Virus genome (UHGV): UHGV-0229283
Source of the DNA: a virus
Length of the DNA: 64,000 nucleotides
Strand: one strand, 5' to 3'
Within the stretch, counting starts at the first letter, position 1, and each line of letters begins with the position of its first letter. Of the stretch, positions 25,063 through 41,991 are shown piece by piece. The translations under genes and the position numbers were made by a program. The notes beneath the pieces were generated by a model. The model had not been told where the DNA came from. It did no database searches and saw only the letters and a program-made list of their open reading frames with translations.

Positions 25063-25301
25063 TTTTACATGATATTTTAAAATTCGAAATGGTTTTCAAA
25101 ATCGTTTTTGAAACGGATTTCATCTTCCCTGCAAATTTTTAAATAAAGAGTTTTGGGAGTAGGTTATCTCAAACCTTTGTGGAAGCTATGTCGAAAAATG
25201 ATGCACAAGTGTATGATTGCTATAGGTATCTTGGCATCAAGATTGGACATTTATCTCAAATAGGCGAAAAAGATATCTCAAATTTTCAGGTAGAAAACTC
25301 T

Positions 25302-25510
25302 GGGTTCTCGATCGACTTTTCGTTTTCAAAAACGTATTTGCTCTCACTATCAAAAAATTTTTCTCTATATCAACCGGGTTCTCGATCGGTTTTTCAAAAT
25401 CGAGATCGTAAATGTTTTTTCTCTAGAAAAAATTTTTCGGCCCGGTTCTCGATCGAGATCTCAATTTCCAGATCGTATTTGTTTTCTTACGCGAAAAAAT
25501 TTTTTAGGGG
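25302..25510. repeat. three degenerate tandem repeats of about 70 bp
   Basis: Each unit begins GGTTCTCGATCG (at 25302, 25376 and 25444) and ends in an AAAAAATTTTTC tract. The region is AT-rich and ORF-poor. Confidence 0.5.
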
Positions 25511-25883
25511 TATCGCTCAGTATATCACATGAAAATCAGAAGTCAATATTTAAATTTTTTGTTGAATGAGAAGCATTCTTATTTAGTTATTTGAATGATA
25601 ATCATTCTCATTTGCTGAATGACAGGCACCCCCGGTGTTTTGTACTCCGGTTTCAATGTTCCCGCTATGTGTATAATATAGGATACACGGCCCCAGGTTG
25701 CAAGCGTCTTTACAATTCTTTACAAATAGACTTTAGGCGAGCTACCGGCGATCCACCTTCCAACCAGGTCTCCGCGCCTGGTATGTTAGCCCCGCCTTTC
25801 CGCCGTGGGGTGGCGTCTCTTCTCCTGTCTGATAAATATAACCCATGTCGGGGCCGTTTGCAAGCCCCGCGATAAAATATTTT

Positions 25884-26069
25884 TTACTCCCAGGAGTCCG
25901 CGAGCACTTCCCCATTTTCCGCTACAATTCTCACCCTGGTAAATCCTGCATTATACATTTTCAACGCGAAGGGTAAAGGCACGATCCTAACCTGGGGCGC
26001 TGCGCTTTCCGTCTCCCAGGTGGAAAGGGTGACCATTGTCTCACTCGTTGTTACTTTTGCGTTTTCCAT
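25884..26069 (-). CDS. hypothetical small protein (61 aa), block-type RBS
   Basis: Preceded on the minus strand by AAAGGTAAACGAAATG, which is identical to the Shine-Dalgarno used by plus-strand genes in the block. Confidence 0.45.
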   Translation of the reverse strand: MENAKVTTSETMVTLSTWETESAAPQVRIVPLPFALKMYNAGFTRVRIVAENGEVLADSWE

Positions 26070-26173
26070 TTCGTTTACCTTTATTTGTGGGCGTCCTTAT
26101 ATAGTACACTAACCAGGCCTGGGCGCAAGCCCACACGAACAAAAATATTTTTAATTTATTTTCATCCAGGGGA

Positions 26174-26202
26174 TTGACGGCAATTAGTAAAGCGCTTACT
26201 AT
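26174..26202 (+). promoter_or_regulatory. sigma70-like promoter
   Basis: TTGACG, a 17-nt spacer, then TACTAT, about 45 nt upstream of the gene at 26250. Confidence 0.45.
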
Positions 26203-26249
26203 CCATCTCATCAGGTCCCCCGTCGCCCACACTTAAAAGGTAAAATAGA

Positions 26250-26543
26250 ATGAAAATTTCCGCTAACAAACAATTGATCGACACTGTAAAAAATTATATC
26301 CGCCACCCGTATGAGTTCGGTGGGTATCCGAAAATTTTAATTATGCGTGATGGTGGTTGCCTTTGCTCAAAGTGTACGCATGAAAATTTTACCCGCCTAT
26401 TGGAAGAATTAAGGGATGAGAGTGATCTGGCATGGATGCCAGCCGATGTGGGTATTTTCTGGGAAGGTGCGGATTTCCCATGTGGTAATTGCCAGACTCC
26501 GATCCCTAGTGCATATGGAGATCCCGAAGAAGAAGAAGAATAA
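26250..26543 (+). CDS. zinc-ribbon protein with polyglutamate C-terminal tail
   Basis: AAAAGGTAAAATAGAATG start context. Contains CLCSKC...CGNC and ends DPEEEEE. Confidence 0.55.
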   Translation: MKISANKQLIDTVKNYIRHPYEFGGYPKILIMRDGGCLCSKCTHENFTRLLEELRDESDLAWMPADVGIFWEGADFPCGNCQTPIPSAYGDPEEEEE

Positions 26544-26551
26544 ATATTTAA

Positions 26552-26587
26552 TTGACACGGGCCAGTGTCCGGGGTTACAATCCCCGG
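26552..26587 (+). promoter_or_regulatory. sigma70-like promoter with the -10 in a hairpin loop
   Basis: TTGACA followed by GGTTACAAT. The -10 lies inside the hairpin CCGGGGTTACAATCCCCGG. Confidence 0.4.
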
Positions 26588-26631
26588 ACCTGACAATCAA
26601 AACAAAAAACTACACAAATCGAGGTTACAAC

Positions 26632-26799
26632 ATGAAAAACATTTCTTTTACTACCCGTGACCAGGCCCGCGCTTTTGCCCGTAATGTTAACAGCAAGGTA
26701 ACCACGGCGGCGCGTTTACGTCAACCTGTTAAAGATGGCGCCGGGCAATGGGTTATCCCTGGGATCAACCACGGCAAAACCTTATCCCTGGCTAAATAA
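26632..26799 (+). CDS. hypothetical small protein (55 aa)
   Basis: ORF 26416..26799 trimmed to MKNISF, which has a CGAGGTTACAACATG start context. Confidence 0.45.
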   Translation: MKNISFTTRDQARAFARNVNSKVTTAARLRQPVKDGAGQWVIPGINHGKTLSLAK

Positions 26800-26892
26800 A
26801 ATATTTTATCCTGGGCGCTTGCTTTCAGTTAGCGCCTTTGATAAAGTGTTTTCTCAGGCGGCAAGGGCCGCGATAAATCGAGGTAAAAAGCA

Positions 26893-27678
26893 ATGTCTAC
26901 GTTTAAACTTAATAATGGTCTGGTTGTCAACTCTGAATCCGAGATCGTGCATAGTGTACCTGGTAAAAAATCCACAGCAAAAAAGGGTTATGTATTATAT
27001 AAAGGCCCGTCAGTCCTGGATAAGGCCCCGATCGTGGTCATTGCTACAATGTCAACCGCTAACGATAAAACAGGCGACATGGTTCAAACCTGGATCATGC
27101 GAGAAGATGTTAGCCCACTGGAAGCAAGCGCGAAAAAACTTGATTCCTCCGTTTGCGGTATGTGTCCCCATCGTACCAGCTTAAACGGCGCTTGTTATGT
27201 GACGCTACACCAGGCCCCACTGTCAGTCTGGAAGTCTTACAAAAAAGGCAACTATAAAGACCTTGATTCTCGCGATCTGGTACATTTTGCGGGTCGTCAT
27301 ATTCGTTTAGGTTCCTACGGTGATCCGGCGGCGGTTCCTTTTGAGGTATGGCAAAACATGATCAACCATACGCAAGGTAATACGGGGTACACTCACCAGA
27401 TCAACCATAAGAATTTTGATCATCGTATCGCTACCATTTGCCAGATCTCCGCCGATACGGAAAAACAAGCGATCACAGCATGGCGCAAGGGTTATAAAAC
27501 TTTTCGCGTGAAAACTCCCAACATGCGCCGCCTGGAAGGGGAGATCACTTGCGTTAATACAACTCACAATATTAGCTGCTTAGATTGCGGCTTATGCGAT
27601 GGTAAACGCGCCAACGTCGTGATCGACGTTCACGGCAGATCCGCAAAAAGATTCGATAAATTCGAACGTATCATTTGA
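26893..27678 (+). CDS. hypothetical protein with Cys clusters (CGMCPH, CLDCGLCDG)
   Basis: 261 aa with a CGAGGTAAAAAGCAATG start context. Confidence 0.55.
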   Translation: MSTFKLNNGLVVNSESEIVHSVPGKKSTAKKGYVLYKGPSVLDKAPIVVIATMSTANDKTGDMVQTWIMREDVSPLEASAKKLDSSVCGMCPHRTSLNGACYVTLHQAPLSVWKSYKKGNYKDLDSRDLVHFAGRHIRLGSYGDPAAVPFEVWQNMINHTQGNTGYTHQINHKNFDHRIATICQISADTEKQAITAWRKGYKTFRVKTPNMRRLEGEITCVNTTHNISCLDCGLCDGKRANVVIDVHGRSAKRFDKFERII

Positions 27679-27751
27679 CAACCGCCACACGATAACAGAT
27701 AATACAAATCAGCCGGGGAATTCTCCCCGGCCCTAGCAAGGGTAAAATATC

Positions 27752-28021
27752 ATGGCAATGAATCTCAGGTCTTTAAAGCTTATGCGCGATTTTAACAAGT
27801 GTTTTCACCAGGTCGCCCAGTATGGCGAGTGTATCAGCATATCAAAAGAGGCCTACAACGTGGATCACTTCCATCACGGCCCTGATTGCCTGATCTCAGT
27901 CCTTGTTAAAAAATTTAACTATCTTGGGCATGAATTCACCTTTAAGATCTCAGATCTTGATAATAAATATTATCTAGCTGGCGATATATGCGCCGCTGGC
28001 TGGAAAGATTTAAGAAAATAA
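27752..28021 (+). CDS. hypothetical protein
   Basis: 89 aa. The CCGGGGAATTCTCCCCGG hairpin sits directly upstream of its Shine-Dalgarno. Confidence 0.5.
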   Translation: MAMNLRSLKLMRDFNKCFHQVAQYGECISISKEAYNVDHFHHGPDCLISVLVKKFNYLGHEFTFKISDLDNKYYLAGDICAAGWKDLRK

Positions 28022-28097
28022 TATTTGACACCAGGCCCGGAAAGGGCCTATAATTACCAGGCACCAACAAACTAAACACTAAACGAGGTAAAATATC

Positions 28098-28610
28098 ATG
28101 GGCTGGACTGGCATTTATTCTAATCTTAATAACAAAAAATTTGTTGAAAATTATCTGACTGATAACCGCGTGATCGAAACTTCTGTTGTAGGCAATGAAG
28201 TTTATCAACTTGCAAGGGCGAGGGATGAAAGTCTTTACATTCGTGTAACAATTCTTTCTCGTAAAGATGGTATGGTCTTTTATAAAGATATGGATGAAAC
28301 CTGCGGCCCGTGTTATTATAACTGTCCTGAAAAATTCCTTAAGCGATCCATGCAAAAAGATGAATTTTCCGTTAATTGGCGTGCCGCTTGCCGTAAACAT
28401 GCCAAATACAAAAAAGAGCAGAAAGCATTGATTGACCGGATCAAGATCCTGAAAAACGGCGATCGCGTGGAAATGGTATCCGGTCGTGTGGTTGTCTTTG
28501 AGTTCCCACATAACCGCGCCCGATTTGCTGGACGCCTGGCGGATGTTGCACCAGGTAAACAAAATTCTCTTTTTGCATGGTCTTATAAAGACGTTGCAAA
28601 GATTCTTTAA
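28098..28610 (+). CDS. hypothetical protein
   Basis: 170 aa with a GAGGTAAAATATCATG start context. Confidence 0.55.
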   Translation: MGWTGIYSNLNNKKFVENYLTDNRVIETSVVGNEVYQLARARDESLYIRVTILSRKDGMVFYKDMDETCGPCYYNCPEKFLKRSMQKDEFSVNWRAACRKHAKYKKEQKALIDRIKILKNGDRVEMVSGRVVVFEFPHNRARFAGRLADVAPGKQNSLFAWSYKDVAKIL

Positions 28611-28669
28611 ACCGCTATACTGATTAAAGCCGGGGAATTGTCCCCGGCATAACCTAAAAGGTAAACAAA

Positions 28670-29053
28670 ATGGCCTACATGAATAAAGAGAAGAAAGCTA
28701 AAATTGTTGAAGCGGTTAAAGCTGTATTGCCGAAGGGTTGGAAAGTTACGTTTAAAGTAATTCACTATTCTACGATCCGTTGTACCGTTCGATCCGCGCC
28801 GTTCAATTTGAATGATGTTTTAGATTTAACAGATTGGGAACGGGAAAACGGGCACAAGGATTTAAACACATACCACTATGAAAGATATTGCAAAACTCCT
28901 GAATTCAAAAAGGCTGTTGGCGAAATCATCGAGGCATTAAATACAGATAATTATAACAATAGTGATATAATGACAGATTATTTTGATGTCGGTCACTATA
29001 TCGGCCTACATTTTGGCGGCCATGATAAGCCATTTAAAAACAGCGCCGCGTAA
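28670..29053 (+). CDS. hypothetical protein
   Basis: 127 aa. The CCGGGGAATTGTCCCCGG hairpin is followed by AAAAGGTAAACAAAATG. Confidence 0.55.
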   Translation: MAYMNKEKKAKIVEAVKAVLPKGWKVTFKVIHYSTIRCTVRSAPFNLNDVLDLTDWERENGHKDLNTYHYERYCKTPEFKKAVGEIIEALNTDNYNNSDIMTDYFDVGHYIGLHFGGHDKPFKNSAA

Positions 29054-29159
29054 TATGAAAGAATTGTTGATTCTACTCATATTTTGTTATTATGCAAAAA
29101 TTCACGTCAGGATCTGGCGTGTTATAAAATGGTTTTACTACTGGTACAGGGTTAAAACA

Positions 29160-29417
29160 ATGTTCCACTATATAGAATATCGCTTCCAGGGGGAGGATTA
29201 CCACACCAGGAGATCCGGGCCGTTAAATGATTTGGAGGGTAGCGGCCTGATTTGTGAGATTAAACACCGGGGAGGCGTGGTCCTGGTACATAAAGAGGGA
29301 TCCTTCGACTACATCGAAGAGCTGATCGAATATCGCAAAAAACAGATCGCGGAATGGCGAGCGGAAACATACAACCACAGGGGATCAAGATATGACAGCA
29401 AAAAGCCGCAACTTTGA
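29160..29417 (+). CDS. hypothetical protein
   Basis: ORF 28983..29417 trimmed to MFHYIEYRF, which has a GGGTTAAAACAATG start context. The upstream part looks like a promoter or regulatory module. Confidence 0.4.
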   Translation: MFHYIEYRFQGEDYHTRRSGPLNDLEGSGLICEIKHRGGVVLVHKEGSFDYIEELIEYRKKQIAEWRAETYNHRGSRYDSKKPQL

Positions 29418-29607
29418 GAAGATGACAAGCCAGCGCGATCGCCTTGCTTTTGGTGAGACTAACGAGCGGCGCGAGCGTAACAATAAACGGCATAAGCCGG
29501 AACGGATCGCGGTTCAATGGTCGCCGGACCAGTATGATCCGAAGCTAAATAAACGCATCGCCGATCGTAAGCGTAATTTGCAGCGATACGCCGTAGCAGG
29601 TGAATAA
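29392..29607 (+). CDS. hypothetical basic protein
   Basis: 71 aa, Arg- and Lys-rich. Confidence 0.4.
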   Translation: MTAKSRNFEKMTSQRDRLAFGETNERRERNNKRHKPERIAVQWSPDQYDPKLNKRIADRKRNLQRYAVAGE

Positions 29608-29640
29608 CCAGTCCGGGGAATTATCCCCGGTTTTTTTTAT
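29601..29640 (+). terminator. rho-independent terminator
   Basis: CCGGGGAATTATCCCCGG followed by TTTTTTTT. Confidence 0.6.
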
Positions 29641-29941
29641 GCAAAAAAGTGAATTTAGCGAGATCTCAGCGTAGCAATGCACTTACCAGGGTTACAGATT
29701 GAAGCGCTTAGAATCGATTTGAGGGCGTTTTAGATGGTATCCGATAACCGCGCCCCGCTCAAAACGTCGCAAATTTAGTTACCGGTTGAAACTAATTGCA
29801 TAACAGCGATTTTCTATGCACATCACTGCATATGAGAACAGTTCTCAACAATTCTTAAAAATATTTGTTGCATCCTGGCGGCGTTATGCTATCCTTTAAT
29901 CAGTGGCGGAATTCACCGCCACACTGAAAAAGGTAAACACT

Positions 29942-30118
29942 ATGGAAAAGCAAAACATGTATAAAACGGCCTATAGTTCTGAATTTTGTTGTTATGTTGG
30001 GATTAATCGCGCTTGGAAAGATTCAAATGGTAAATGGATTTTTGAGTGTTCAAATGTGGCAAAGGGCCTAGATAATTTCCTTTTTCGTGAGTCAGAACTA
30101 GAAAAATTTTGTCTTTAA
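29942..30118 (+). CDS. hypothetical small protein (58 aa)
   Basis: ORF 29903..30118 trimmed to MEKQNMYK, after AAAAAGGTAAACACTATG. Confidence 0.45.
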   Translation: MEKQNMYKTAYSSEFCCYVGINRAWKDSNGKWIFECSNVAKGLDNFLFRESELEKFCL

Positions 30119-30121
30119 TTG

Positions 30122-30151
30122 TTGACACTGGTTAATGTGTGGGGTTATACT
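30122..30151 (+). promoter_or_regulatory. repeated early-type promoter (copy 1)
   Basis: TTGACACTGGTTAATGTGTGGGGTTATACT, then CACATTGACAAGTGAAACAAA. Confidence 0.55.
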
Positions 30152-30196
30152 TCCTACACATTGACAAGTGAAACAAATAACCAAAAGGTAAACAAC

Positions 30197-30481
30197 ATGC
30201 AAAACGTAAAATCTGAAATCGCCGCTCTTGAATCAAAATTCCTGGGCAAAATGGTGTATCATAACTATGGTCAAATCGCTTTTGGCGTGGTAACCGGAAT
30301 CGATGATCGCGATCCCAATAAATTACGTTTACGCGTGAAGTTTACCCGCAACAATACTCCGGCGCATATCAAAAAATATGACAACCGCGCGGATCGTGTT
30401 CGTTGCTTACTCCCTCAATCTGTTACCGTGTCCCGTGTTCAATATGGGATCTATAATCAGACAAACCAGATCAACAAATAA
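30197..30481 (+). CDS. hypothetical protein
   Basis: ORF 30119..30481 trimmed to MQNVKSE, after AAAAGGTAAACAACATG. The 5' part of the ORF is the promoter. Confidence 0.55.
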   Translation: MQNVKSEIAALESKFLGKMVYHNYGQIAFGVVTGIDDRDPNKLRLRVKFTRNNTPAHIKKYDNRADRVRCLLPQSVTVSRVQYGIYNQTNQINK

Positions 30482-30519
30482 TCAATAGCGGGGCCTTGCG
30501 CCCCATTAAGGCGGCTACC

Positions 30520-30738
30520 ATGTTTGGATTTATTATATTGGCTTGTCATATTTCTGTTAGTTCGATGGCATTACAATGTGATTGGAATGTTAAAAAAACA
30601 TTCCCCACGGAACAGGCTTGCAACGTGTACGAAAACGAATACACGTTAGGCAAAGGCGAGCAGATCGGGATCTGCGATGAGTTAGACCCCGGCGTTAAAG
30701 AAGGCGATAAGCGCCCTATTCTCACCCTCAAAAAGTAA
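30520..30738 (+). CDS. putative secreted or lipoprotein small protein
   Basis: MFGFIILAC... is a hydrophobic N-terminus with a possible lipobox ILAC. Several Cys residues. Confidence 0.45.
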   Translation: MFGFIILACHISVSSMALQCDWNVKKTFPTEQACNVYENEYTLGKGEQIGICDELDPGVKEGDKRPILTLKK

Positions 30739-30748
30739 GGTAACGATC

Positions 30749-30940
30749 ATGTTTGAAGTATTCGCGGGTATGTGCTTTTATGGTGCGCTGGCTTTAAAAC
30801 AGTGTGATGATTATGTAGTAGAAAGCTATGATGATCAATTGACTTGCGAGATCGTCGCCGTTGACTATCAGCGCCAGGGGCGCTGGATTAATCCGGCCTG
30901 CATACCATCGCCGGAAGTCGAACCGATGCCGGAAAGCTAA
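30749..30940 (+). CDS. hypothetical protein
   Basis: 63 aa with a TAAGGTAACGATCATG start context. Confidence 0.5.
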   Translation: MFEVFAGMCFYGALALKQCDDYVVESYDDQLTCEIVAVDYQRQGRWINPACIPSPEVEPMPES

Positions 30941-31023
30941 AATAATCATTGATCCCCCGGCCCGGTTAGGTTATATTACTTGGACCGGGCAAGATTGGCC
31001 CACTAACAAAAAGGTAAAATAGT

Positions 31024-31347
31024 ATGGAAAAGGCAAACAAATTTTTCTTTCTGGAAAATGTTAATGACAATGTTAATTGTGACTTTAATCGCCAGGGTGA
31101 AAAAACCATGCTAGTATTTTGCCATGAGAATGACAGCGAACAAACGGACCGTTTAACCGTCCTGATCCGTACTGAAAAATCTATTCAATCCCATAGCGGA
31201 AAACTTGAAAACCGCCACTTTATCGCCTACACGCTTGAAAGAAGCGGAGTAACAATAAAACAGGCTGACAGCCTGCCTATAACTACCCCGGATCTGGTCT
31301 GGATGTTTACAACTGCTATTGTTAACGATGTTTTCCGTTCTAACTGA
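31024..31347 (+). CDS. hypothetical protein
   Basis: 107 aa with an AAAAAGGTAAAATAGTATG start context. Confidence 0.55.
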   Translation: MEKANKFFFLENVNDNVNCDFNRQGEKTMLVFCHENDSEQTDRLTVLIRTEKSIQSHSGKLENRHFIAYTLERSGVTIKQADSLPITTPDLVWMFTTAIVNDVFRSN

Positions 31348-31360
31348 TTGAGAAAATTAA

Positions 31361-31395
31361 TCTGAAAAGTCGCTTGCAAACGTGAGCGACTTTTA
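31361..31395 (+). terminator. rho-independent terminator
   Basis: AGTCGCTTGCAAACGTGAGCGACT followed by TTTTATT. Confidence 0.55.
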
Positions 31396-31452
31396 TTATA
31401 TTTAATGCACAGGGCGGCAATGGTGCGACGGCCCAAAATAAAGGTAAACGAA

Positions 31453-31617
31453 ATGAAACTTTCCCAGCAATTTGCTCAAGAATGCCGCGAAGAAGCGAAG
31501 TATTATTTTGATCGCGCCTTGCAAGCGAAAGCAGAAGGCCTGAATTATTCCCGCCGTGTTTGCTTACAGGTCGCTTTATTGAATCGCAAAAACGCCCGTA
31601 AATGGGCCGCCGAATAA
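31453..31617 (+). CDS. hypothetical small protein (54 aa)
   Basis: ORF 31405..31617 trimmed to MKLSQQF, after AAAGGTAAACGAAATG. Confidence 0.45.
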   Translation: MKLSQQFAQECREEAKYYFDRALQAKAEGLNYSRRVCLQVALLNRKNARKWAAE

Positions 31618-31621
31618 TTTG

Positions 31622-31650
31622 TTGACACTGGTTAATGTGTGGGATAAGAT
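31622..31650 (+). promoter_or_regulatory. repeated early-type promoter (copy 2)
   Basis: TTGACACTGGTTAATGTGTGGGATAAGAT, then CACATTGTCAAGTGAAACAAA. Confidence 0.55.
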
Positions 31651-31703
31651 ACCCGCACATTGTCAAGTGAAACAAAAAAACCACACAAAACGAGGTAAAC
31701 AGA

Positions 31704-32474
31704 ATGACCACTAAAATCACCGTTACTTATTACATCGACTCCGGCAAGCTGAATGCAATGTATACATTGCGCCGCCGTAATTTTGGCGGTGGCGTTTTTG
31801 TAGATTCTTACATTTGCAATCTTTCAACCGATCCCCAAAAAGCAGAAAATAAAGCAAAGGAATATTTTGATCGAGTAACCGCGCGGATCGCCAATACAGA
31901 AAACTTTGAGCAAGTTTTTGCAGGCTATGCGGATTTTGAGCTGGGGCAACGTCGCGGTAAATTGTCGATCGTCGATACGGCCCGGATCGAAGAAATCGAA
32001 GCGGGGCGCTTTCCGTTTGGCAAGCATTGCGGTAAAACGTTTGCCGATGTTAAAGAATCATATGTTTTATTTTTTGCTGATATGGCAAACAAGCCAGACA
32101 ACGGCCCGGTAATGGAAGCATTAAGCGCGGCTTGTTTGGGCTATGCTCTTGATCATGGGTACATTGCAGCCCGTGACCAAAAACGCGCCGAGCGTAAGGC
32201 CGAGGATTTAAAAAGCAACTGGATCGGCAACATTGGCGATCGCCTGGTTTTTGAGGGTGAGATCGTTTTTTCTTATCTAAAAATTGATGAGTGGAGTTTA
32301 TCATCTTACTATATTATAAAAATTCGCCAGGGTGACGATCTGGTTACCTACATCGGATCAAAAGAGTTAGGCCCGGTTGGCGCGGTTATTAAGTTTAAAG
32401 CTACCGTCAAAAAACATGATACATATCAAGATGTTAAAACAACCGTTGTAAACCGTCCCGCCATTATGGCATAA
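31704..32474 (+). CDS. hypothetical protein with DUF3820-like FPFGKHCGKTF motif
   Basis: 256 aa with an ACGAGGTAAACAGAATG start context. The (M/F)PFGK(H/Y)xGKT motif resembles DUF3820 and the ExoX C-terminal motif. Confidence 0.5.
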   Translation: MTTKITVTYYIDSGKLNAMYTLRRRNFGGGVFVDSYICNLSTDPQKAENKAKEYFDRVTARIANTENFEQVFAGYADFELGQRRGKLSIVDTARIEEIEAGRFPFGKHCGKTFADVKESYVLFFADMANKPDNGPVMEALSAACLGYALDHGYIAARDQKRAERKAEDLKSNWIGNIGDRLVFEGEIVFSYLKIDEWSLSSYYIIKIRQGDDLVTYIGSKELGPVGAVIKFKATVKKHDTYQDVKTTVVNRPAIMA

Positions 32475-32522
32475 TGTACACCAGGCCCCGGATCGCCGGG
32501 GCAACTTTTAGAGGTAAACAAA

Positions 32523-32813
32523 ATGAAAAATGTTAACGCGCTGTTAGAAAAGGCTGAAAAATTAGTCTGGGCGGAAATAGAAAAGAAAGTAACAAAAATT
32601 CTACTGAGTGAACGCAACGCAGCGCGGGGCTTTATTTGTTGTATGGGCGGTTATTTCTGGATCGACAGCAACGGCGATGCAATAGACGATCGCGCCTGGA
32701 TGAATCCTGTTTTCAATATCTTTGATAAATACGATGATGCTTTCAAGCTTACGGGGATCGGTTGGCGCTGGGATCTGGTTAATGGCGAGGTTGTAAAAAC
32801 AACCGATTGGTAA
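32523..32813 (+). CDS. hypothetical protein
   Basis: 96 aa. The hairpin GGCCCCGGATCGCCGGGGC is followed by AGAGGTAAACAAAATG. Confidence 0.55.
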   Translation: MKNVNALLEKAEKLVWAEIEKKVTKILLSERNAARGFICCMGGYFWIDSNGDAIDDRAWMNPVFNIFDKYDDAFKLTGIGWRWDLVNGEVVKTTDW

Positions 32814-32969
32814 ATGCAAATGATACGTTTTCTCAATATGCGATCTGGTAAAATTTATCGCTGGATTGAAAACCGTGTTTTGGTTGAAACGACAAAAGGC
32901 TGGCGACGTGTAGATCACTTGCGCCCCGCCGATCTGGCTTGCTTTCCTTTCATGGGGATTAAAAAATGA
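32814..32969 (+). CDS. hypothetical small protein (51 aa)
   Basis: Unlisted ORF MQMIRFLNMRSGKIYRW... coupled to its neighbours by TAAATG and ATGA overlaps. Confidence 0.35.
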   Translation: MQMIRFLNMRSGKIYRWIENRVLVETTKGWRRVDHLRPADLACFPFMGIKK

Positions 32970-33433
32970 TTAGTGTACGAATGTTTTATTACGATGAATT
33001 ATCAGAACAGGCAAAAGCCGCCGCCCGCGCTAACGTTGTGATCCCCGAGGTGGAAGCACTGATTCGTAATGTTGGCAACGCTCGCCAGGCCTGGAAGGAA
33101 AACATTCACCGGGCAATTAATGACCCTTATCACGTCCGCCGGATCTACAATGGACAAATGGCGCTTTACAAAATCCGGCACCAGGGCGAGGCTTATTTGA
33201 TACCCTACATCCGGCAAAACTGCACAATTTATCTGGCCGATGGATCATATGTTTACTATGATTGCAACAAAAAACGGATCGCTATTGTTAACAGTGGTTA
33301 TCATGGATTATTACCCGACGATCTCCAGGTGGCGGCGCGTGATGAATATGTAAGAGTAAACGATCGAGGCCCGGCATACTTTAGAAAATTATATTCCGAC
33401 ATTGCAAAGGCGAAGAGATCCGGCCCGGCATGA
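32966..33433 (+). CDS. hypothetical protein
   Basis: 155 aa. Confidence 0.55.
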   Translation: MISVRMFYYDELSEQAKAAARANVVIPEVEALIRNVGNARQAWKENIHRAINDPYHVRRIYNGQMALYKIRHQGEAYLIPYIRQNCTIYLADGSYVYYDCNKKRIAIVNSGYHGLLPDDLQVAARDEYVRVNDRGPAYFRKLYSDIAKAKRSGPA

Positions 33434-33800
33434 TAGGAAAATCTTTACAATTCCAGGGCTTGTTTTCGGTCCTGGTTTTTGTTATTCTGTTTTTGAAGCG
33501 GCAACGATGGACACCGGAGGAAAGTCACCGGAGGTGCCCGCCATTCTGGTAATGAGAATTACTCTCAACAACGCCTAAAATCTTATGCAAAATAGTGAAT
33601 ATGGCGAGATCTCCGATAAAATGGACTAGGGTACAGCCTGGACGAAAAACCGCTTAAAACTCGTTACAGGGCGTTTAAAGGCCATATAAAAACAACTTGA
33701 CACGGGAAAACGGCTAAAAAGTAATTTCACCATGAAATCAATTGCATAGCGATGCATAAAGATGCAAAAAGTGAATAATGTAAAGATACGTAAAGAGCTA

Positions 33801-33829
33801 TTGACAGCGATCCCCGCTTATATTATTAT
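33801..33829 (+). promoter_or_regulatory. sigma70-like promoter
   Basis: TTGACA, a 17-nt spacer, then TATTAT, upstream of the gene at 33879. Confidence 0.4.
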
Positions 33830-33878
33830 TTATCTCGTAGGGCAAACAAACGAAAACAACTTAACGAGGTAAACGAAA

Positions 33879-34238
33879 ATGACTATCATCAATCTGAATT
33901 CTACTGTTAAAGGTAAAGATTTTGGCGGCGTAGTAGATCATGATCCGATGTGGTCGCTTTCAGTTTTCAAAGGCGATTTAATCGACGTCGTTACCCTGGA
34001 TGGCCCGAGCGACGATTACAAATGTGAAATTCATCTCACTAACTGGTACACTAACAAAACTTATGCTCTTGATCGCGTGATTATCGGTAGAATTGAATCA
34101 CTGACAGACGAAGAGACCGGGCAAGATTTTGATTATTATATCAATAGCTCTGATCGCGCTGATCGTCTGCTGCAAAAGATTAAAGAAAAAGGCGTTATTG
34201 ATTTAGCTCTTTGGGTGGACGTTACAGAAAGCAACTAA
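33879..34238 (+). CDS. hypothetical protein
   Basis: 119 aa with an ACGAGGTAAACGAAAATG start context. Confidence 0.55.
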   Translation: MTIINLNSTVKGKDFGGVVDHDPMWSLSVFKGDLIDVVTLDGPSDDYKCEIHLTNWYTNKTYALDRVIIGRIESLTDEETGQDFDYYINSSDRADRLLQKIKEKGVIDLALWVDVTESN

Positions 34239-34242
34239 GTTA

Positions 34243-34275
34243 ACAGATTAAAAGGCGTTTAGATGAGCGCCTTTT
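34243..34275 (+). terminator. rho-independent terminator
   Basis: AAAGGCGTTTAGATGAGCGCCTTTT followed by GAT. Confidence 0.55.
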
Positions 34276-34313
34276 GATAAGTTATCACCAACAATCAAAA
34301 GAGGTAAAAAACA

Positions 34314-34643
34314 ATGACTAAATCAGAATTCTTTAAAATGCTGGATAATCATCTAGAATCACACAACTACACTTTCGATCATTTTGGAAATCGAATCAAG
34401 CGAGAGGATCGCCAGTATACAGCAAACGAGATCGAGGCCTTCACACATAGCGAACCAGAAGAGAAGATCGTGAAACTTAAAGCGGCGGATTCAAATTATC
34501 CTTGGATTTTTCATTCTTCCGGTTGGTGCCTTGCGGATTGTTGGTATATCACCGCTATCTCACATAGAACAAAAGCGGCGGCAGAAAAGCAACATAAGAT
34601 TTTTACCCGCTGGATCGCTGAGTATAAAGAGCTTAACAAATAA
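34314..34643 (+). CDS. hypothetical protein
   Basis: 109 aa with an AGAGGTAAAAAACAATG start context. Confidence 0.55.
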   Translation: MTKSEFFKMLDNHLESHNYTFDHFGNRIKREDRQYTANEIEAFTHSEPEEKIVKLKAADSNYPWIFHSSGWCLADCWYITAISHRTKAAAEKQHKIFTRWIAEYKELNK

Positions 34644-34691
34644 TCAAACCGGGGCGCTAGCCGCCCCGCTATCCTTTGAGGTAAAGCAATT

Positions 34692-34922
34692 ATGATTAAT
34701 ATTAGTGTTGACAAGTTAGCCGAAATCATCCAGAAGGCAGGAGATGAGAAATACGGCGTAAATGATTTTTATTTCATCGGGCAGTATGAGGACGGTCGCT
34801 ATTATGGCGTGTTGTCTAACAAGGTGAAAAGCCGTAGCAGCGCCGCACAATTGCGCCGCCCGGAGTTTTTAGAACAAAAGGGCCTTAAAGTAATAAAAGT
34901 AATGAAACGCAAAAAAGGTTGA
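34692..34922 (+). CDS. hypothetical protein
   Basis: 76 aa. A CGGGGCGCTAGCGCCCCG hairpin lies upstream. Confidence 0.5.
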   Translation: MINISVDKLAEIIQKAGDEKYGVNDFYFIGQYEDGRYYGVLSNKVKSRSSAAQLRRPEFLEQKGLKVIKVMKRKKG

Positions 34923-35134
34923 TGATTATGAAAACTGTAAAAGCAAAAGATTTAAAAGGCGGAATGATCATCGAATTACCGGACATTGCACCAGGCTTTA
35001 AACCTGGTTTAGTGACTATCACACAAATAGAAATCGAAGCGCCCCACATTGTGGAAGTATCTTTCTATTACAAAAAGCGCTATATGGCCGACCTTTATCA
35101 CCCTGAGGCGGAATTTAAACTAATCAGTGAATGA
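34919..35134 (+). CDS. hypothetical protein
   Basis: 71 aa with an ATGA overlap. The start could instead be MKTVKAK, 9 nt downstream. Confidence 0.5.
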   Translation: MMIMKTVKAKDLKGGMIIELPDIAPGFKPGLVTITQIEIEAPHIVEVSFYYKKRYMADLYHPEAEFKLISE

Positions 35135-35237
35135 GGCTGTAAAGAAAAGGCAAACCGCTTGCCTGGCCAGATGTTTTCGACTATTATTTATTTCAGGGCG
35201 GGAAGATAACCAACCCGCAAAACCGAAGGTAAATAAA

Positions 35238-35408
35238 ATGTCAAATATCCGCTACAATATCAAAAGCACTTCAAAAACCGGTTATGTGTCTTATGTTCGC
35301 CAGGGGTCTACAATGGCTTGGACCTTTGAAGAATGTATGAAAATTGTTACTACGCTTTCAGGTGATGATCGCTATATGGGCGTTTTATTTGAGATTGAAT
35401 TAGCTTAA
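35238..35408 (+). CDS. hypothetical small protein (56 aa)
   Basis: ORF 35127..35408 trimmed to MSNIRYNIK, after CGAAGGTAAATAAAATG. Confidence 0.45.
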   Translation: MSNIRYNIKSTSKTGYVSYVRQGSTMAWTFEECMKIVTTLSGDDRYMGVLFEIELA

Positions 35409-35440
35409 ACATCGGGGCGCTATTGCAGCGCCCTTTTTCG
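35409..35440 (+). terminator. rho-independent terminator
   Basis: GGGGCGCTATTGCAGCGCCC followed by TTTTT. Confidence 0.6.
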
Positions 35441-35482
35441 TGTGTTATTCTTTTACCTCCCTCATTAAACGAGTAACACCAA

Positions 35483-35746
35483 ATGACAAACATGATTTAC
35501 ACTGTAAGCAAAACAAGCCTTTTACGCGCTACCCTGCTGGCTTGCCTTATTGCTTTAGTGTCTAATACGTGTTTTAACTGGCTGGCTTGCCTGGTAACGA
35601 CGGAAACAATGGCGCAAGGGTTTAACACCATGATCGACGTTTTACAATTGACGTTTTACACTCTGATTAAACTTAATCGCTTTAATCGTTTAGACCGTTA
35701 TGATCTCCCTTTCTTGATCGCTGGCCTGCTGGCTATCGCGCTGTAA
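35483..35746 (+). CDS. small membrane protein
   Basis: 87 aa with two or three hydrophobic helices. It is the last gene of the block. Confidence 0.5.
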   Translation: MTNMIYTVSKTSLLRATLLACLIALVSNTCFNWLACLVTTETMAQGFNTMIDVLQLTFYTLIKLNRFNRLDRYDLPFLIAGLLAIAL

Positions 35747-35764
35747 GGCTCCACTACTCCCCAA

Positions 35765-35800
35765 AAATAATGCCGGGCAACTCCCGGCTTTTGTGTTTTT
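35765..35800 (+). terminator. rho-independent terminator
   Basis: GCCGGGCAACTCCCGGC followed by TTTTGTGTTTTT. Confidence 0.55.
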
Positions 35801-36160
35801 ATATGTTAGGTTTTATCAATCAATAATCAAAAAGTGATAGGTGACTAAAACCTGCATAATCGAGATCTCCAGGCGGTAACCCACTAGCCAGGGTAAGAGA
35901 TAAAGCCTCTCAGAATGGCGCATATTGCGCTTAAAAGGGTATGGCCCTACCTAACAACCCCAACAATTAATAACGCATGTTATTAACTGAATAAAACATG
36001 CATTTTTAAGCATTATGTATGCATAGTGTGAGAATCACTCTCAAATGATAACTTTTATCATCTAACCTATTGTGTGAACTGGTTTTATTGAGCATAAAAA
36101 TAAAATCTTGTCAAATAAAAATCGTTCGCGTAATCGTGGGGAGTGGCGCGAGCGTAGCGA

Positions 36161-36364
36161 GCGACACAATAACACTAGGGTAACTCAAATGCGAACAAAT
36201 CGCATTCTCGTTCGCGTTATCGTGGCTCGTAGACGCTACGATCAAGGACGAAATTATTACAGTGTATTATCATTACATCCGTAATGATTAGCAATGGAAC
36301 TTTATCACATCGCCACGATAACACCGATCAACTATCGTTGATCGCCCTAGTGTTATTGTGTCGC
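36161..36364. repeat. perfect 20-bp inverted repeat pair flanking ATCGTGG/CCACGAT iterons
   Basis: GCGACACAATAACACTAGGG at 36161-36180 and its exact reverse complement at 36345-36364. Between them are CGCGTAATCGTGG, CGCGTTATCGTGG and CGCCACGATAACACC. Confidence 0.5.
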
Positions 36365-37491
36365 TGGTGATGGTAACACCCCGTTATTATTATGTGATTA
36401 AATGAAATTTAATGGTTGACAAATAGCAATAAATCACTTGCCAATGTGGGCCTATGGCCTATGGAAAGGCCTGTTTTTGAGCATGGAAGAAGTGTAAACT
36501 GTCAAGTGTTTTTATTATCGAAAATTCCTATCAATGCCTTGCGTGGCAATAAAGAAAATAGTTACTTATTGTAACTATTTCAATGCTTTAGCATTGCCGG
36601 GTATCCGGTCCGTAACGGGCTTATGTGAGAATAGTTATCATTGGGGAAATGCTCAAAGTATAGCTGTGTGTTAAACACGATTCTCTCTCCTTGTCAAGCT
36701 TTTATTTATAAATTTACAAAATATTTATATTTGCGGAATGATTCTCATTTCGAAATTGAATTCGAAATCGAAATAATAATGATTCTCATTCGTCATCTCA
36801 TTCACAAAACAACCCTAAAACATGAATAATCACACATGAAACTATCACCACAGTAACAGTCACACCATGTAATGACCTGAAGCGGCTGGCCTATGCGTCA
36901 CACTGGTAACATTGGGGCATTATTAGCTTGCTATGTGTTGTTGGTCAGTGCGTATAACGTGTTTTATGTTAAATGGTGTAATTCATATAAATATAAGCTT
37001 GTCAATAGCAAATCGTGCTCTAAGCTGGCAAACCATATGCTTGCTATATGTCACATTTGATTATTATTAGTTTCGGCAAGTAACTATCATGCCTGAAGAG
37101 GCCCCGAGGAACCGGGAACCGGATCGACCTTGCCCATGATATTTTGTAAAGATCCGTAAAAATATTTGACGCCCGGAGCTGTCCGTCTAGCACCGCAGAT
37201 GGTGAGAACAGGATATTTTTCGGCAAGTGATATTTTCGGCAGGGGGCCTGTTTTGATTTCCCCACGGGGGAAGGGGTGGTTATACGGGGAAAACAGGGGC
37301 CTGTTTACGGTATCGACATATCGGGGAGTCCCTTCAGATTGTGTGTTAATGAAATGAGTACGTAGTACAATGAGAATCATTCTCATTTACAGACAACCGG
37401 GCAGGTCCGGTGATTGTTTCGTGCAGCCTCAGCACCTGTTGCTGTGTGCAGGATAACAGGGTTGCCTATTCAGGTCAACCCCTTCGTGCGG

Positions 37492-37779
37492 TCACCACTG
37501 ATGAAATCTTTTGTGCTCCCATCTCGCCCGGCTGATGATACACCACATAGCCTGTTCATCATAGAAACCAAGCGCTTTAAGCTCTTGCTTCACATCGCTC
37601 AACTGTGCGTATAAATAAAGCTTTTTACTACCTTGACGCAGGAGGATAGCTGGTACAAGTGTCTTTGCATAGTCCAACAACACCTCTATTCTCTGCCTTT
37701 TCCCTTCAGATTTCTTGCGTGGGCAATTCCTGATGTGTGCCAGTTTTGCTGGCGCTTTTACTACTTTGTTGAAAGCCAT
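37492..37779 (-). CDS. hypothetical basic protein
   Basis: 95 aa, Lys- and Arg-rich. It is the most promoter-distal gene of the leftward block that begins near 41.9 kb. Confidence 0.5.
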   Translation of the reverse strand: MAFNKVVKAPAKLAHIRNCPRKKSEGKRQRIEVLLDYAKTLVPAILLRQGSKKLYLYAQLSDVKQELKALGFYDEQAMWCIISRARWEHKRFHQW

Positions 37780-38195
37780 AGAGGTTCCTTAAAGAATGGT
37801 TGTGATGATCAGACATTGTTGTGTGGTTCTCATCATTGCATGGGTGGCCTGGCCCGTTGGAGGGTCGTTATTGTCATCATCGTCATCTACGAATAAGGTA
37901 AGGACCACCACCACGATGGCAACAATCCCCAACACCCAAAGAACTATAAGTCCCATCATTCATCCTTCTTAGCCACTGGCCCAATAGATACGTACAACAT
38001 CATCCCATAAGGGATAAGGATCAGGAGCACTGTAATCAGCATCCCTAGTAATAAGAAACCCATGTCGTCCATAAAATTCTCCTCGTGTAATTGATAGAGG
38101 GAGTATAATCGCCGAGCCTGTTTACGTCAAGGTAAATTGATGCTCCACTTTAGATAAAAGAAAAGGAGCCTCTTCAGACTCCCTTGTGGTGTGGG

Positions 38196-41915: not shown

Positions 41916-41991
41916 ACGCCTCCCCATGATTTCTCCTTTGAAATTGTTTATCTTGGCATTATGACAGAAAGAGAGGTCTTGTCAACAGTTG

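Follow-up and report, generated by a model that had tools for sequence, protein, structure and literature searches.

The window, a 64,000-nt (64-kb) stretch of DNA, comes from a Klebsiella Mydovirus-like phage (Vequintavirinae), its closest matches being Mydoviruses at 93-97% identity. Between an HNH-endonuclease gene and a leftward gene it carries a block of about 26 rightward ORFs encoding 40-261 aa, together with a single leftward gene (25884..26069). The block appears to comprise three transcription units, A, B and C, whose boundaries we infer from the sequence:

24484..25062: HNH endonuclease gene, adjoining the left border of the block
25063..25883, no strand: conserved non-coding left border
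25300-25504: three tandem GATC-rich repeats of ~67-74 nt, inside ORF 25179..25532
25567-25581 and 25596-25610: left-border palindromes
26174..29638, + strand: putative unit A, starting at promoter 26174-26202
26250..26543, 26632..26799, 26893..27678, 27752..28021, 28098..28610, 28670..29053, 29055..29417 and 29422..29607, + strand: unit A genes
26893..27678, + strand: 261-aa, enzyme-like gene of unit A
26552, 27675, 28025 (12/12 matches): internal promoters of unit A
27711-27732 and 28628-28649: hairpins of unit A
29613-29630: terminator hairpin of unit A, then a run of eight Ts
29608..29941, + strand: E1, long non-coding intergenic element, a diverged copy of E2/E3 (family D13)
29833-29847: palindrome TGAGAACAGTTCTCA of E1, which also holds a GCGAGATCTC core
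29942..33483, + strand: putative unit B (repeat families D9 and D15)
29942..30118, 30197..30481, 30520..30738, 30749..30940 and 31024..31347, + strand: first five genes of unit B
31453..31617, 31704..32474, 32523..32813, 32814..32969 and 32966..33433, + strand: last five genes of unit B
31704..32474, + strand: 256-aa gene of unit B, C-terminal OB fold
30119-30180 and 31619-31679: two copies of a ~62-nt promoter/palindrome module in unit B
30949 and 31374: further promoter-like sites of unit B
30489-30505 and 32484-32502: hairpins of unit B
33453-33475: terminator of unit B
33553..33878, + strand: E2, long non-coding intergenic element, with palindrome 33553-33567
33801..35795, + strand: putative unit C
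33879..34238, 34314..34643, 34692..34922, 34928..35134, 35238..35408 and 35483..35746, + strand: unit C genes
34650-34668: hairpin of unit C
35414-35434 and 35772-35788: terminators of unit C
35747..37491, no strand: gene-poor region of 1.7 kb, on which both small-gene blocks converge
35790-36110: element E3, within the gene-poor region
36029, 36626, 36772 and 37371: palindromes in the gene-poor region
36160-36180 and 36345-36365: perfect 21-nt inverted repeat
36674..37187, no strand: counterpart of the 514-bp direct terminal repeat (the physical genome ends), single copy in the window
37492..37779: leftward gene bounding the block at the right

The initial annotation described about 27 small ORFans of 50-260 aa, nearly all rightward. 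Orientation and size need little correction; true ORFans, however, they are not, since PHROG families were assigned to 22 of the 28 block ORFs scanned and Pfam families to two, and one ORF has more than 940 metagenomic homologues. That nearly all products are without known function holds after sequence searches of Pfam, PHROGs, NCBIfam and PDB, and no paralogy was found among the block proteins. Of the two largest, one resembles a Cys-rich enzyme of wide conservation, the other a nucleic-acid binder with an OB fold. The gene at 33879..34238 is a homologue of T4 gp30.8 (Pfam PF06019, E = 4e-28), and the leftward gene encodes a 61-aa DUF7170 protein (Pfam PF23776, E = 1e-25); its substitution periodicity fits coding on the - strand, and it diverges from the 26070-26249 intergenic region.

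Several parts of the locus seem to be non-coding. ORF 25179..25532, with which the region opens and which is annotated as a CDS in relatives, probably does not encode a protein, judging from substitutions of 54/39/55 with no codon periodicity, as against 24/17/138 in a real gene; coding periodicity was likewise looked for and not found in ORF 37087..37386. Positions 25533-25883 are 85% identical to the Seunavirus sequence over more than 310 nt, and E2, in which promoter 33801-33829 and two copies of ATGCAAAAnAGTGAATA lie, shares 86% identity with Seunaviruses across ~320 nt. At the right end, the terminal repeat_region of phage DP maps to 36674-37187 at 97% identity, and in KPP-1 a 514-bp terminal repeat was identified from twofold read coverage and PhageTerm (PMC9862379); by this mapping, the block adjoins the repeat and with it the predicted physical end of the genome. 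The rV5 equivalent of the gene-poor region is a 2.6-kb ORF-free gap.

A start-site signal is present at each of the ~26 rightward ORFs, with these stereotyped initiation regions:

26238, 26881, 28086, 28659, 29931, 30186 and 31012, + strand: motif copies, first half, laid out as A-rich leader, AGGTAAA, N4-6 and ATG
31442, 31693, 32512, 33867, 34302, 34679 and 35227, + strand: motif copies, second half, with the same A-rich-leader layout
26621, 27739, 30736, 32808 and 34913, + strand: close variants of the motif
26238..35240, + strand: span of the stereotyped translation-initiation regions

AGGTAAA-N4-6-ATG occurs 16 times in the 64 kb and 15 times in the block, where ~0.5 copies would be expected by chance. 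The motif had been given a spacer of N5-6; its recurrence far exceeds chance, but the spacer is mostly N4-5 (nine matches with N4 vs 0.25 expected, six with N5 vs 0.20, and one case of N6). The leftward gene uses it too, as had been proposed, with AGGTAAACGAAATG at 26067-26080 on the - strand starting 25884..26069. AGGTAA is carried by 13 of 25 block genes vs 1 of 105 elsewhere in the window, whereas GGAG/AGGA ribosome-binding cores precede none of those 25 and 69 of the 105 (66%); GGAG and AGGA are also 2- to 5-fold depleted on the sense strand throughout the block. Genome-wide, the motif is confined to the block in one Mydovirus and one Seunavirus (14 of 15 copies in KNP2 and 14 of 17 in LNA4), the block being 7-8% of either genome. 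The genes that it precedes are not homologous to each other.

Could such a signal serve as a regulatory address? A dedicated factor, for instance a translational repressor or a sequence-specific endoribonuclease, would then bind AGGTAAA regions, or attack GGAG-type ones and leave the AGGTAAA type untouched, and the whole block would be switched on and off as one post-transcriptional regulon. The confinement of the motif in two genera, its retention before non-homologous genes, and the complete avoidance of GGAG/AGGA cores together with their depletion along the sense strand all speak for this. T4 provides a precedent for reading ribosome-binding regions: its RegB nuclease cuts GGAG in early ribosome-binding sites, and its RegA represses a set of initiation regions. 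In T4 as in the block, an early gene class is distinguishable by the sequence of its ribosome-binding region, but T4 early genes carry the GGAG that the early-type block avoids, so that the resemblance is one of logic only. No regulator was identified within the 64-kb window, recombination between modules would by itself make the motif uniform, and in rV5, a member of the same subfamily, the motif is not prevalent (2-3 copies in 30 kb). We therefore consider a regulatory address unlikely, although it is compatible with the modular shuffling discussed below.

Promoters, hairpins and operators had also been said to recur, and all three signal classes are indeed repeated in the block. Nine promoters in the window have at least 11/12 matches to the sigma-70 consensus, and five of them lie in block intergenic regions, all on the + strand; the unit B promoter is weak or uncertain. 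Promoter-like sites overall are in modest excess (48 vs 34 +/- 6 in shuffled sequence). The hairpin family AGCCGGGGAATTNTCCCCGGC occurs three times, and block stems fold at -13 to -30 kcal/mol, those of unit B reaching -29.6 and -26.4 kcal/mol (z ~-5). Stem-loops lie over the -10 box or between -35 and -10 at 26565, 28033, 30134, 31634 and 30959, others 10-14 nt upstream of the ribosome-binding site, and one stem differs between the window and KpS8 by a compensatory change (GTGTGG/CCTACAC to GTCTGG/CCAGAC). The palindrome TGAGAA-N3-TTCTCA has seven matches vs 0.38 expected, all between 25567 and 37385. A ‘private regulatory grammar’ is thus supported, and its repeated signals also mark breakpoints of gene gain and loss.

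Base composition tells a different story from the initial annotation, which held the region to be richer in G+C: GC is 0.427 in the block vs 0.442 in the window outside it, which places the block at the 20th percentile among equal-sized windows, and in Seunavirus LNA4 the homologous span has 0.443 vs 0.463 for the complete genome. Codon usage is distinct: the RSCU distance between the block and the remainder of the window is 2.86 vs 1.27 +/- 0.19 for random equal-size gene sets, i.e. ~8 standard deviations. The block also has the more host-like codon set of the two (r = 0.68 with an E. coli K-12 sample; other blocks, 0.22-0.45). AAG, TTC, TAC and AGT are under-used, and by standard anticodon-codon pairing these would be expected to be read by tRNAs that KNP2 encodes (Lys-CUU, Phe-GAA, Tyr-GUA and Ser-GCU); the argument from phage tRNAs is nevertheless mixed, because TTA is commoner in the block despite a tRNA-Leu(UAA).

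Host-like codon usage off the genome norm, small uncharacterised products, a unique HNH endonuclease gene at the left border and single genes present or absent among near-identical phages are what might be expected of a laterally acquired, compositionally foreign island with anti-defence genes, as originally suggested. Comparison with relatives makes this origin very improbable. The block is collinear in 12 of 12 Mydovirus loci examined and partly so in Seunaviruses GAP31 and FENT2, down to nucleotide-level conservation; block, gene order and non-coding elements are kept across the two genera, and ~12 genes belong to a core shared by all 12 Mydoviruses. GC does not exceed the genome average in the window or in two complete relatives. 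Lateral acquisition as an island is refuted by the synteny: the gene set is not foreign, and synteny is kept while single genes vary. Nor did Pfam, PHROGs, NCBIfam and PDB sequence searches or two structure predictions yield a relative among anti-defence families, and the likely nature of the two largest proteins points elsewhere.

If the block is inherited vertically and syntenically, as the sequence comparison indicates, how do single genes come and go between close relatives? Single-gene losses are flanked by direct repeats of the start-site motif or ATTTGACA, and windows at the repeated start-site or -35 motifs, which cover 11.5% of the sequence, contain 20 of 40 junction clusters (p = 2e-9). 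In overlapping alignments, the repeated 7-29-nt motif itself lies at the deletion joint. An extra gene of KpS8 comes with a promoter, a hairpin and an AGGTAAA start site of its own; it is placed precisely at the -35 box belonging to the 30122 promoter, and this box is duplicated on both sides. Two large deletions have unrelated intragenic 9-11-nt microhomologies at their ends, so that general microhomology-mediated deletion operates too, and the flanks of the block are mosaic as well. Since alignment ends stop at a shared motif regardless of the crossover, the junction enrichment means that motifs bound variable segments and does not prove strand exchange inside them.

It is conceivable that the shared signals merely reflect selection for efficient expression by the host machinery, their coincidence with junctions being a by-product of whole-gene gain and loss. 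The motif pairs with the 16S rRNA 3' end over just 4-5 nt (AGGU) in a context averaging 45% A, whole-gene indels end in intergenic DNA anyway, and the authors who described the PeSL cassettes considered below themselves infer the crossover site. However, intergenic location alone accounts neither for the repeated motif at the deletion joint nor for the -35 box duplicated by an inserted gene, and efficient expression gives no reason for the use of GGAG/AGGA elsewhere in the genome, the other terminal small-gene block included. This alternative appears quite unlikely.

The block is thus probably the right-terminal early-gene block of a Mydovirus, of the kind that rV5-like Klebsiella phages have beside their genome end, and a hyperplastic accessory region of single-gene modules. 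Each module would have some or all of four signals: a near-consensus sigma-70 promoter; a stem-loop, rich in GC, that lies over or between -35 and -10 or else shortly upstream of the ribosome-binding site; a leader rich in A; and AGGTAAA-N4-5-AUG. Three longer non-coding segments, which are conserved, contain a palindromic operator and each follow a U-tract terminator, may split the block into about three units. Host RNA polymerase would transcribe it directly after infection, stem-loops might attenuate or stabilise read-through transcripts, and every gene would be translated from one moderately strong, unstructured type of initiation region with a codon set closer to that of the host than the rest of the genome uses. 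Genes may be inserted, deleted or replaced via recombination between repeated start-site and -35 motifs, so that each would move with its own signals. The products are unrelated to one another and presumably act as accessory or host-takeover factors. Of the earlier description as an accessory early or host-takeover island, the early and accessory character stands at the sequence level (near-consensus sigma-70 promoters ahead of many genes, small uncharacterised proteins, variable genes, position by the genome end), while host takeover is presumptive and the early timing is suggested by promoter sequence and analogy.

Features of this kind have precedents. In rV5, 88 small ORFs surround an ORF-free gap (Kropinski et al. 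2013, PMC3606486); the region is homologous, with two convergent small-ORF blocks flanking a non-coding gap and scattered sigma-70-type promoters, but lacks the AGGTAAA start-site class, and that paper does not describe start-site uniformity, a codon-usage difference, a terminal-repeat position or motif-bounded indels. [quoted passage not shown] 1998 describe it, is a terminal cluster of ~26 small early genes in several operons, placed in a 12.4-kb terminal region or terminal redundancy. In those passages it resembles the block in gene number and size, position near a terminus, several operons, mostly unknown products, and promoters and ribosome-binding sites typical of highly expressed genes. 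It differs in that the module is placed in the terminal redundancy, whereas the block lies beside a 514-bp, non-coding repeat, and in that host shut-off has been shown for SPO1 genes, the block being known from sequence alone; sequence homology between the two is absent.

A close parallel is offered by the PeSL (promoter-early stem-loop) cassettes that T4-like phages carry in their hyperplastic regions (Arbiol et al. 2010, PMC2839356; Comeau et al. 2014, PMC4122927). The block belongs to a Vequintavirinae lineage and its sequences are dissimilar; AGGTAAA-N4-5-ATG, and not the promoter, is its most uniform and most recombined part; many of its modules show a hairpin and a start site but lack a promoter; and promoter and terminator activity and mini-circles were demonstrated for PeSL, whereas the block modules are read from DNA. 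Yet both have an intergenic module in which a sigma-70 consensus promoter is combined with a GC-rich stem-loop over or between -35/-10 and, at the 3' end, with a Shine-Dalgarno sequence and start codon; in both, modules precede small genes of unknown function and bound insertions, deletions and replacements between close relatives, an inserted gene bringing its own module. The gene turnover of the block matches the modular shuffling of PeSL cassettes.

The 11.8-kb region and its flanks are 93-97% identical to Mydovirus phages of Klebsiella, Proteus and Raoultella (Vequintavirinae, rV5-like myoviruses), and parts of the region also match Seunaviruses (GAP31, FENT2, 4MG, PVP-SE1 and others) at about 81-83% identity. 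The gene layout, based on heuristic gene calls, is the one described by the initial annotation:

24484..25062, HNH-endonuclease gene, left border of the block
25884..26069, minus strand, the single leftward gene
up to 35746, plus strand, about 26 rightward genes of 40-261 aa
3' of 35746, gene-poor stretch of 1.7 kb before the leftward block
from 37492, minus strand, leftward gene block

In all annotated relatives the block genes form a run of 'hypothetical proteins', and the genome paper on rV5 describes '88 mainly small ORFs' around an ORF-free stretch (PMC3606486). The best-supported reading of this block, judged from comparison of the sequences, is that it would be a vertically inherited, terminal, early-type accessory block made up of single-gene modules.

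An earlier proposal saw here a G+C-rich, possibly laterally acquired island. Direct computation rules out a GC-rich island in the window as well as in relatives: the G+C content of the block is 0.427 versus 0.442 for the rest of the window (20th percentile among equal-sized windows), the homologous span of the Seunavirus LNA4 has 0.443 versus 0.463 for its genome, and in KNP2 the cassette span has 0.433 (computed without excluding N) versus 0.446 for the genome (N excluded). Lateral acquisition likewise loses ground, given that the G+C is not deviant and that the block is collinear in all 12 Mydovirus loci compared and partly so in two Seunaviruses, GAP31 and FENT2 (the rV5 region was compared too; a scan of IMG/VR contributed only three of the loci, one of them phage Ro1). 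Synteny among relatives thus largely refutes the 'island', whereas an identical gene set in all of them is not what was found. About 12 block genes occur in all 12 Mydoviruses, usually at >93% amino-acid identity, many of them also in the Seunaviruses at 40-92%; genes 26250, 28098 and 34314 exist as divergent alleles, and others are patchy:

27752..28021, in 4 of 12 loci
29942..30118, in 6 of 12 loci
31453..31617, in 2 of 12 loci
32523..32813, in 2 of 12 loci
33879..34238, gp30.8-like gene, in 7 of 12 loci

The flanks are mosaic, as the block is. The HNH gene at 24484-25062 is without counterpart at this position in all 12 Mydovirus loci, other HNH genes accounting for weak matches (32-41%) elsewhere in four loci; the 1-kb segment 42000-43000 is likewise unique at its position, and both look like recent mobile-gene insertions. 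In four deposited records (OY978784.1, OY978796.1, OY979426.1 and OY757067.1) the annotation does not line up with the sequence: genes for tail, portal and terminase are placed over DNA 96% identical to the small-gene block, and for this reason the OY-series annotation (e.g. K18PH07C1) was disregarded.

Could codon usage nevertheless mark the block as foreign? It does differ from the flanks, as the initial annotation had suggested checking: GC3 is ordinary (0.445), and the RSCU distance of the block to the rest is 2.86 versus 1.27 +/- 0.19 for random gene sets of equal codon number. Preferred in the block are GGC, CGC, CCG, GCG, AAA, TTT, TAT and TTA; under-used are GGT, AGT, AGA/AGG, AAG, TTC and TAC. 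The correlation with 43 genes of E. coli K-12, a sample that stands in for Klebsiella, is r = 0.68 for the block versus 0.22-0.45 for the other four blocks; of 24 block genes, 13 are closer to E. coli than to the phage core, as compared with 0-6% of genes elsewhere. Such a deviation may be taken as the mark of an island; a difference in expression class explains it equally well. The 19 tRNAs of KNP2 include Lys-CUU, Phe-GAA, Tyr-GUA and Ser-GCU, and by standard anticodon-codon pairing these four should read codons enriched outside the block. The pattern would fit translation of the block genes before phage tRNAs accumulate, with TTA as the exception.

The position of the block in the genome follows from the terminal repeat. 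The deposited sequence of phage DP carries a 514-bp repeat_region at both ends, which maps to 36674-37187 of the window with 97% identity, and a 514-bp direct terminal repeat was established for KPP-1 by twofold coverage and PhageTerm (PMC9862379); the window thus reads through a collapsed terminal repeat. On this mapping, the block forms the final 11 kb of the linear genome and is transcribed toward the end, and the leftward block from 37492 is the first part, also transcribed toward its end. The repeat itself is gene-free, and the block stops 0.9 kb before it. The leftward block apparently has a single strong predicted promoter at 41985; its genes overlap, and its ribosome-binding sites are of the ordinary GGAG type. 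Where this block begins, the 0.8 kb that follow the terminal repeat (37250-38000) are the most variable part of the 30 kb compared, aligning in 11-35% of relatives. About 0.3-0.5 kb upstream of the repeat lies a perfect 21-nt inverted repeat in non-coding DNA (AGCGACACAATAACACTAGGG; 36160-36180 and 36345-36365, 164 nt between the arms), near a site of 52-65-nt insertions in relatives.

Within the block, intergenic spacers recur in three kinds, namely promoter modules, hairpin-only spacers and long non-coding spacers, and the recurring promoters, hairpins and palindrome on which the proposed private regulatory grammar was built are borne out at the level of sequence. Promoter modules are ordered alike: a GC-rich stem between the hexamers or around the -10 box, then an A-rich leader, then the start signal. 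Of the nine sites in the window that agree with the promoter consensus at 11 or 12 of 12 positions, five fall in the block, all on the plus strand and intergenic. The elements are:

26552, 27675, 28025, 30122 and 33801, plus strand, predicted TTGACA-17/18-TATAAT promoters, 11-12 of 12 matches
31622, predicted TTGACA-17/18-TATAAT promoter, 10 of 12 matches
26565-26587, 30134-30163, 31634-31663 and 30959-30990, stems enclosing the -10 box
28033-28049, stem between the -35 box and the -10 box
27711, 28628 and 29611, hairpin-only family AGCCGGGGAATTNTCCCCGGC
30489, 32484 and 34650, further hairpin-only spacers
29613, 33453, 35414 and 35772, predicted U-tract terminators

The promoter-associated stems have energies of -14 to -30 kcal/mol, with z down to -5.4. 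Modules 30119 and 31619 are copies of each other (-29.6 and -26.4 kcal/mol, z about -5), and a compensatory stem change distinguishes the window from KpS8. Each hairpin-only stem sits 10-14 nt 5' of the start signal. From the U-tract terminators, about three transcription units may be inferred for the block. A 40-aa ORF annotated in some relatives (33430-33552) overlaps the terminator-like hairpin at 33453-33475, extends into the long non-coding spacer that follows, and may not be a gene.

The start signal itself is strongly overrepresented. AGGTAAA-N4-ATG occurs nine times in the window versus 0.25 expected, the N5 form six times versus 0.20 and the N6 form once; 15 of the 16 copies lie in the block, including the minus-strand copy before the leftward gene, which upholds the common start signal described earlier. 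AGGTAA lies within the 18 nt preceding the start in 13 of 25 block genes versus 1 of 105 genes elsewhere (rough gene calls, whole window). A GGAG or AGGA core precedes none of the 25 versus 69 of the 105, and GGAG and AGGA are 2- to 5-fold rarer on the sense strand of the block than on those of the four remaining gene blocks. In GAP31 and FENT2, the homologous blocks have the signal before 13-14 genes, some without a homologue in the window, and there it is usually preceded by a hairpin of the GCCGGGGA-N4-TCCCCGGC type. Genome-wide, KNP2 has 15 copies of AGGTAAA-N4-6-ATG (13% of that record is N) and the complete LNA4 has 17; in each, 14 fall in the block, which in LNA4 makes up 8% of the genome. 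Two readings of the signal can be discarded. A trait of the whole subfamily is ruled out by rV5, which has only 2-3 copies in its homologous 30-kb small-ORF region, and gene duplication is ruled out by the block proteins not being paralogues, all-vs-all BLASTP having found no match between any two at E <= 0.01. Taken together with its spread across relatives, this makes the signal one that is common to unrelated genes and a trait of the Mydovirus-Seunavirus clade.

Why would unrelated genes share an A-rich initiation region, AGGTAAA-N4-5-AUG, that is confined genome-wide to the terminal block in two genera and goes along with a complete lack of the GGAG/AGGA cores found at two-thirds of the other genes? 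Rather improbably, the phage could have two separately addressable classes of ribosome-binding site. A dedicated post-transcriptional switch would then recognise this region, or be kept off by it, and so set the entire early regulon on or off without any change in transcription. Such a switch might be, for instance, a repressor of translation or an endoribonuclease specific for Shine-Dalgarno sequences, with a logic like that of RegA/RegB. The strict split into classes, together with the shift in codon usage, makes early-versus-late translational control directly testable, and AGGTAAA-N4-5-ATG offers a practical marker for the extent of the early accessory block, and for where its genes start, in such genomes. 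Our literature search found neither a transcriptome study of Vequintavirinae nor a description of regulatory elements of Mydovirus.

The same motifs recur where genes have come and gone. Single-gene absences are joined via short direct repeats, the flanking alignments overlapping by 7-29 nt in the relative, and the joint repeat is the start-site motif in most cases:

absence 27756-28085, joint repeat GGTAAAATATCATGG, start-site motif
absence 29956-30182, joint repeat AAAAGGTAAACAnnATG, start-site motif
absence 31457-31683, joint repeat AGGTAAACnnAATGA, start-site motif
absence 33886-34297, joint repeat GAGGTAAAnnAnAATGACTA, start-site motif
absence 32519-32807, joint repeat GGTAAA, start-site motif
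absence 27681-28022, joint repeat ATTTGACA, -35 region (one case)

Replacement blocks begin at TTGACG (26179) or TTGACA (27680) and finish at a start codon or ribosome-binding site. In KpS8 an extra gene sits precisely on the -35 box of promoter 30122, flanked on both sides by TTGACA and bringing its own promoter, hairpin and AGGTAAAGATATG start. Overall, 20 of 40 distinct junction clusters fall in start-site or -35 windows, which cover 11.5% of the sequence (p = 2e-9, binomial; junctions are BLAST segment ends from 12 phylogenetically non-independent loci). Large deletions in Ro1 and NDO71 (n = 2) have unrelated intragenic 9-11-nt repeats at their joints, so ordinary microhomology deletion also occurs. 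As far as alignments can show, the variable units are bordered by the motifs, which are also what is found at the joints; an alignment inevitably continues into any common motif and does not give the exact crossover point. On the best-supported reading, the repeated promoter, hairpin and start-site signals have a double role: they drive expression, and they are the joints at which genes are preferentially gained, lost and replaced.

The long spacers, about 330 nt each, form a further repeated component:

29608-29941, non-coding element E1
33553-33878, non-coding element E2
35790-36110, non-coding element E3

They are diverged copies of one element with common patches (GCGAGATCTC, CGCTTAnAA, GGGCGTTT and TGAAAnnAATTGCATA), each containing one TGAGAA-N3-TTCTCA palindrome and each following a hairpin with a U-tract. 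Between genera, E2 keeps 86% identity along some 320 nt, above most block proteins. None of the three matches Rfam, and in the region as a whole no tRNA or known RNA family reaches Rfam gathering thresholds (two sub-threshold matches at E < 1 are at chance level). The palindrome has seven matches versus 0.38 expected, and within the 64 kb all of them are confined to 25567-37385; its sites are 25567, 25596, 29833, 33553, 36029, 36626, 36772 (a variant, found with a longer 19-nt pattern) and 37371. It resembles the 7-1-7 form of the Fur box (TGAGAAT-C-ATTCTCA versus TGATAAT-N-ATTATCA); a Fur box proper is ruled out, there being no match to the 19-bp consensus GATAATGATAATCATTATC within three mismatches. 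A 47-nt direct repeat (25594-25640 and 37369-37415, 74% identical), consisting of the palindrome followed by a CCGG-rich hairpin, brackets the block, the non-coding region and the terminal repeat, close to the limits of 25560 and 37400 assigned initially. At the left end, the ORF 25179-25532 (phrog_25933; a CDS in relatives) shows substitutions by codon position of 54/39/55 versus 24/17/138 for a real gene over 14 loci, contains three tandem GATC-rich repeats of 67-74 nt ending in AAAAAATTTTT, with a period not divisible by 3, and is likely a non-coding repeat. The 350 nt 3' of 25532 are 85% identical to Seunaviruses, making 25063-25883 a conserved non-coding stretch of about 0.8 kb, whose repeats could possibly be origin-like iterons or a protein-binding array.

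What do the block proteins do? PHROG families cover 22 of the 28 block ORFs scanned, all of function unknown save two implausible labels, and there are only two Pfam families, DUF7170 (the leftward gene) and Phage_30_8/T4 gp30.8 (33879..34238). NCBIfam gave nothing for the ten largest proteins and PDB sequence searches nothing significant for the four largest; structure models were made for two. RefSeq relatives and PHROGs label 26250-26543 (97 aa) 'DNA ligase' and 35238-35408 (56 aa) 'exonuclease', names that are implausible given these sizes and the lack of a Pfam or NCBIfam domain, and that look like propagated annotation errors. With a likely non-coding repeat called as a CDS besides, annotation in such blocks is poor. 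The 261-aa protein of 26893-27678 is a member of a very widespread family, with >940 homologues about 50% identical, among them marine and Pseudomonas sequences, and has seven invariant cysteines and a GHTGYTHQ motif; its model is confident, has no close solved relative, weakly resembles radical-SAM enzymes, and the family appears to be one of uncharacterised enzymes. Nothing in the proteins searched points to anti-defence, and on this coverage the suggested anti-defence role is not supported as stated.

Among known systems, the closest parallel is provided by the promoter-early stem-loop cassettes (PeSLs), for which modular shuffling was described in T4-like phages by Arbiol et al. and Comeau et al. 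(PMC2839356, PMC4122927). In sequence terms, the block likewise has intergenic sigma-70 consensus promoters, stem-loops between or over the -35 and -10 boxes or adjoining the promoter, and modules that end 3' in the Shine-Dalgarno and start codon of the downstream gene; these are concentrated in a variable region, before small genes without known function, and where close relatives differ by an inserted, deleted or replaced gene, the block motifs form the borders. PeSLs, however, belong to the T4 superfamily and the window phage to the Vequintavirinae, which makes the resemblance one of analogy, not descent, and in the block, by contrast, it is the start site that is the most uniform element. 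On the best-supported reading, PeSL-type shuffling appears here in another lineage, suggesting that 'mobile regulatory cassettes', so far described only in T4-like phages, also operate in unrelated large phages of Klebsiella, Salmonella and Cronobacter, a group used in therapy and biocontrol. As a cluster of some 25 small genes at the terminus, equipped with strong predicted promoters and ribosome-binding sites of their own, the block also recalls SPO1's host-takeover module; no homology of its proteins to SPO1 proteins was found, and the SPO1 module lies inside the terminal redundancy, whereas the block lies beside the 514-bp repeat. Finally, rV5 offers a likeness within the Vequintavirinae themselves, in the form of two convergent small-ORF blocks around an ORF-free stretch.
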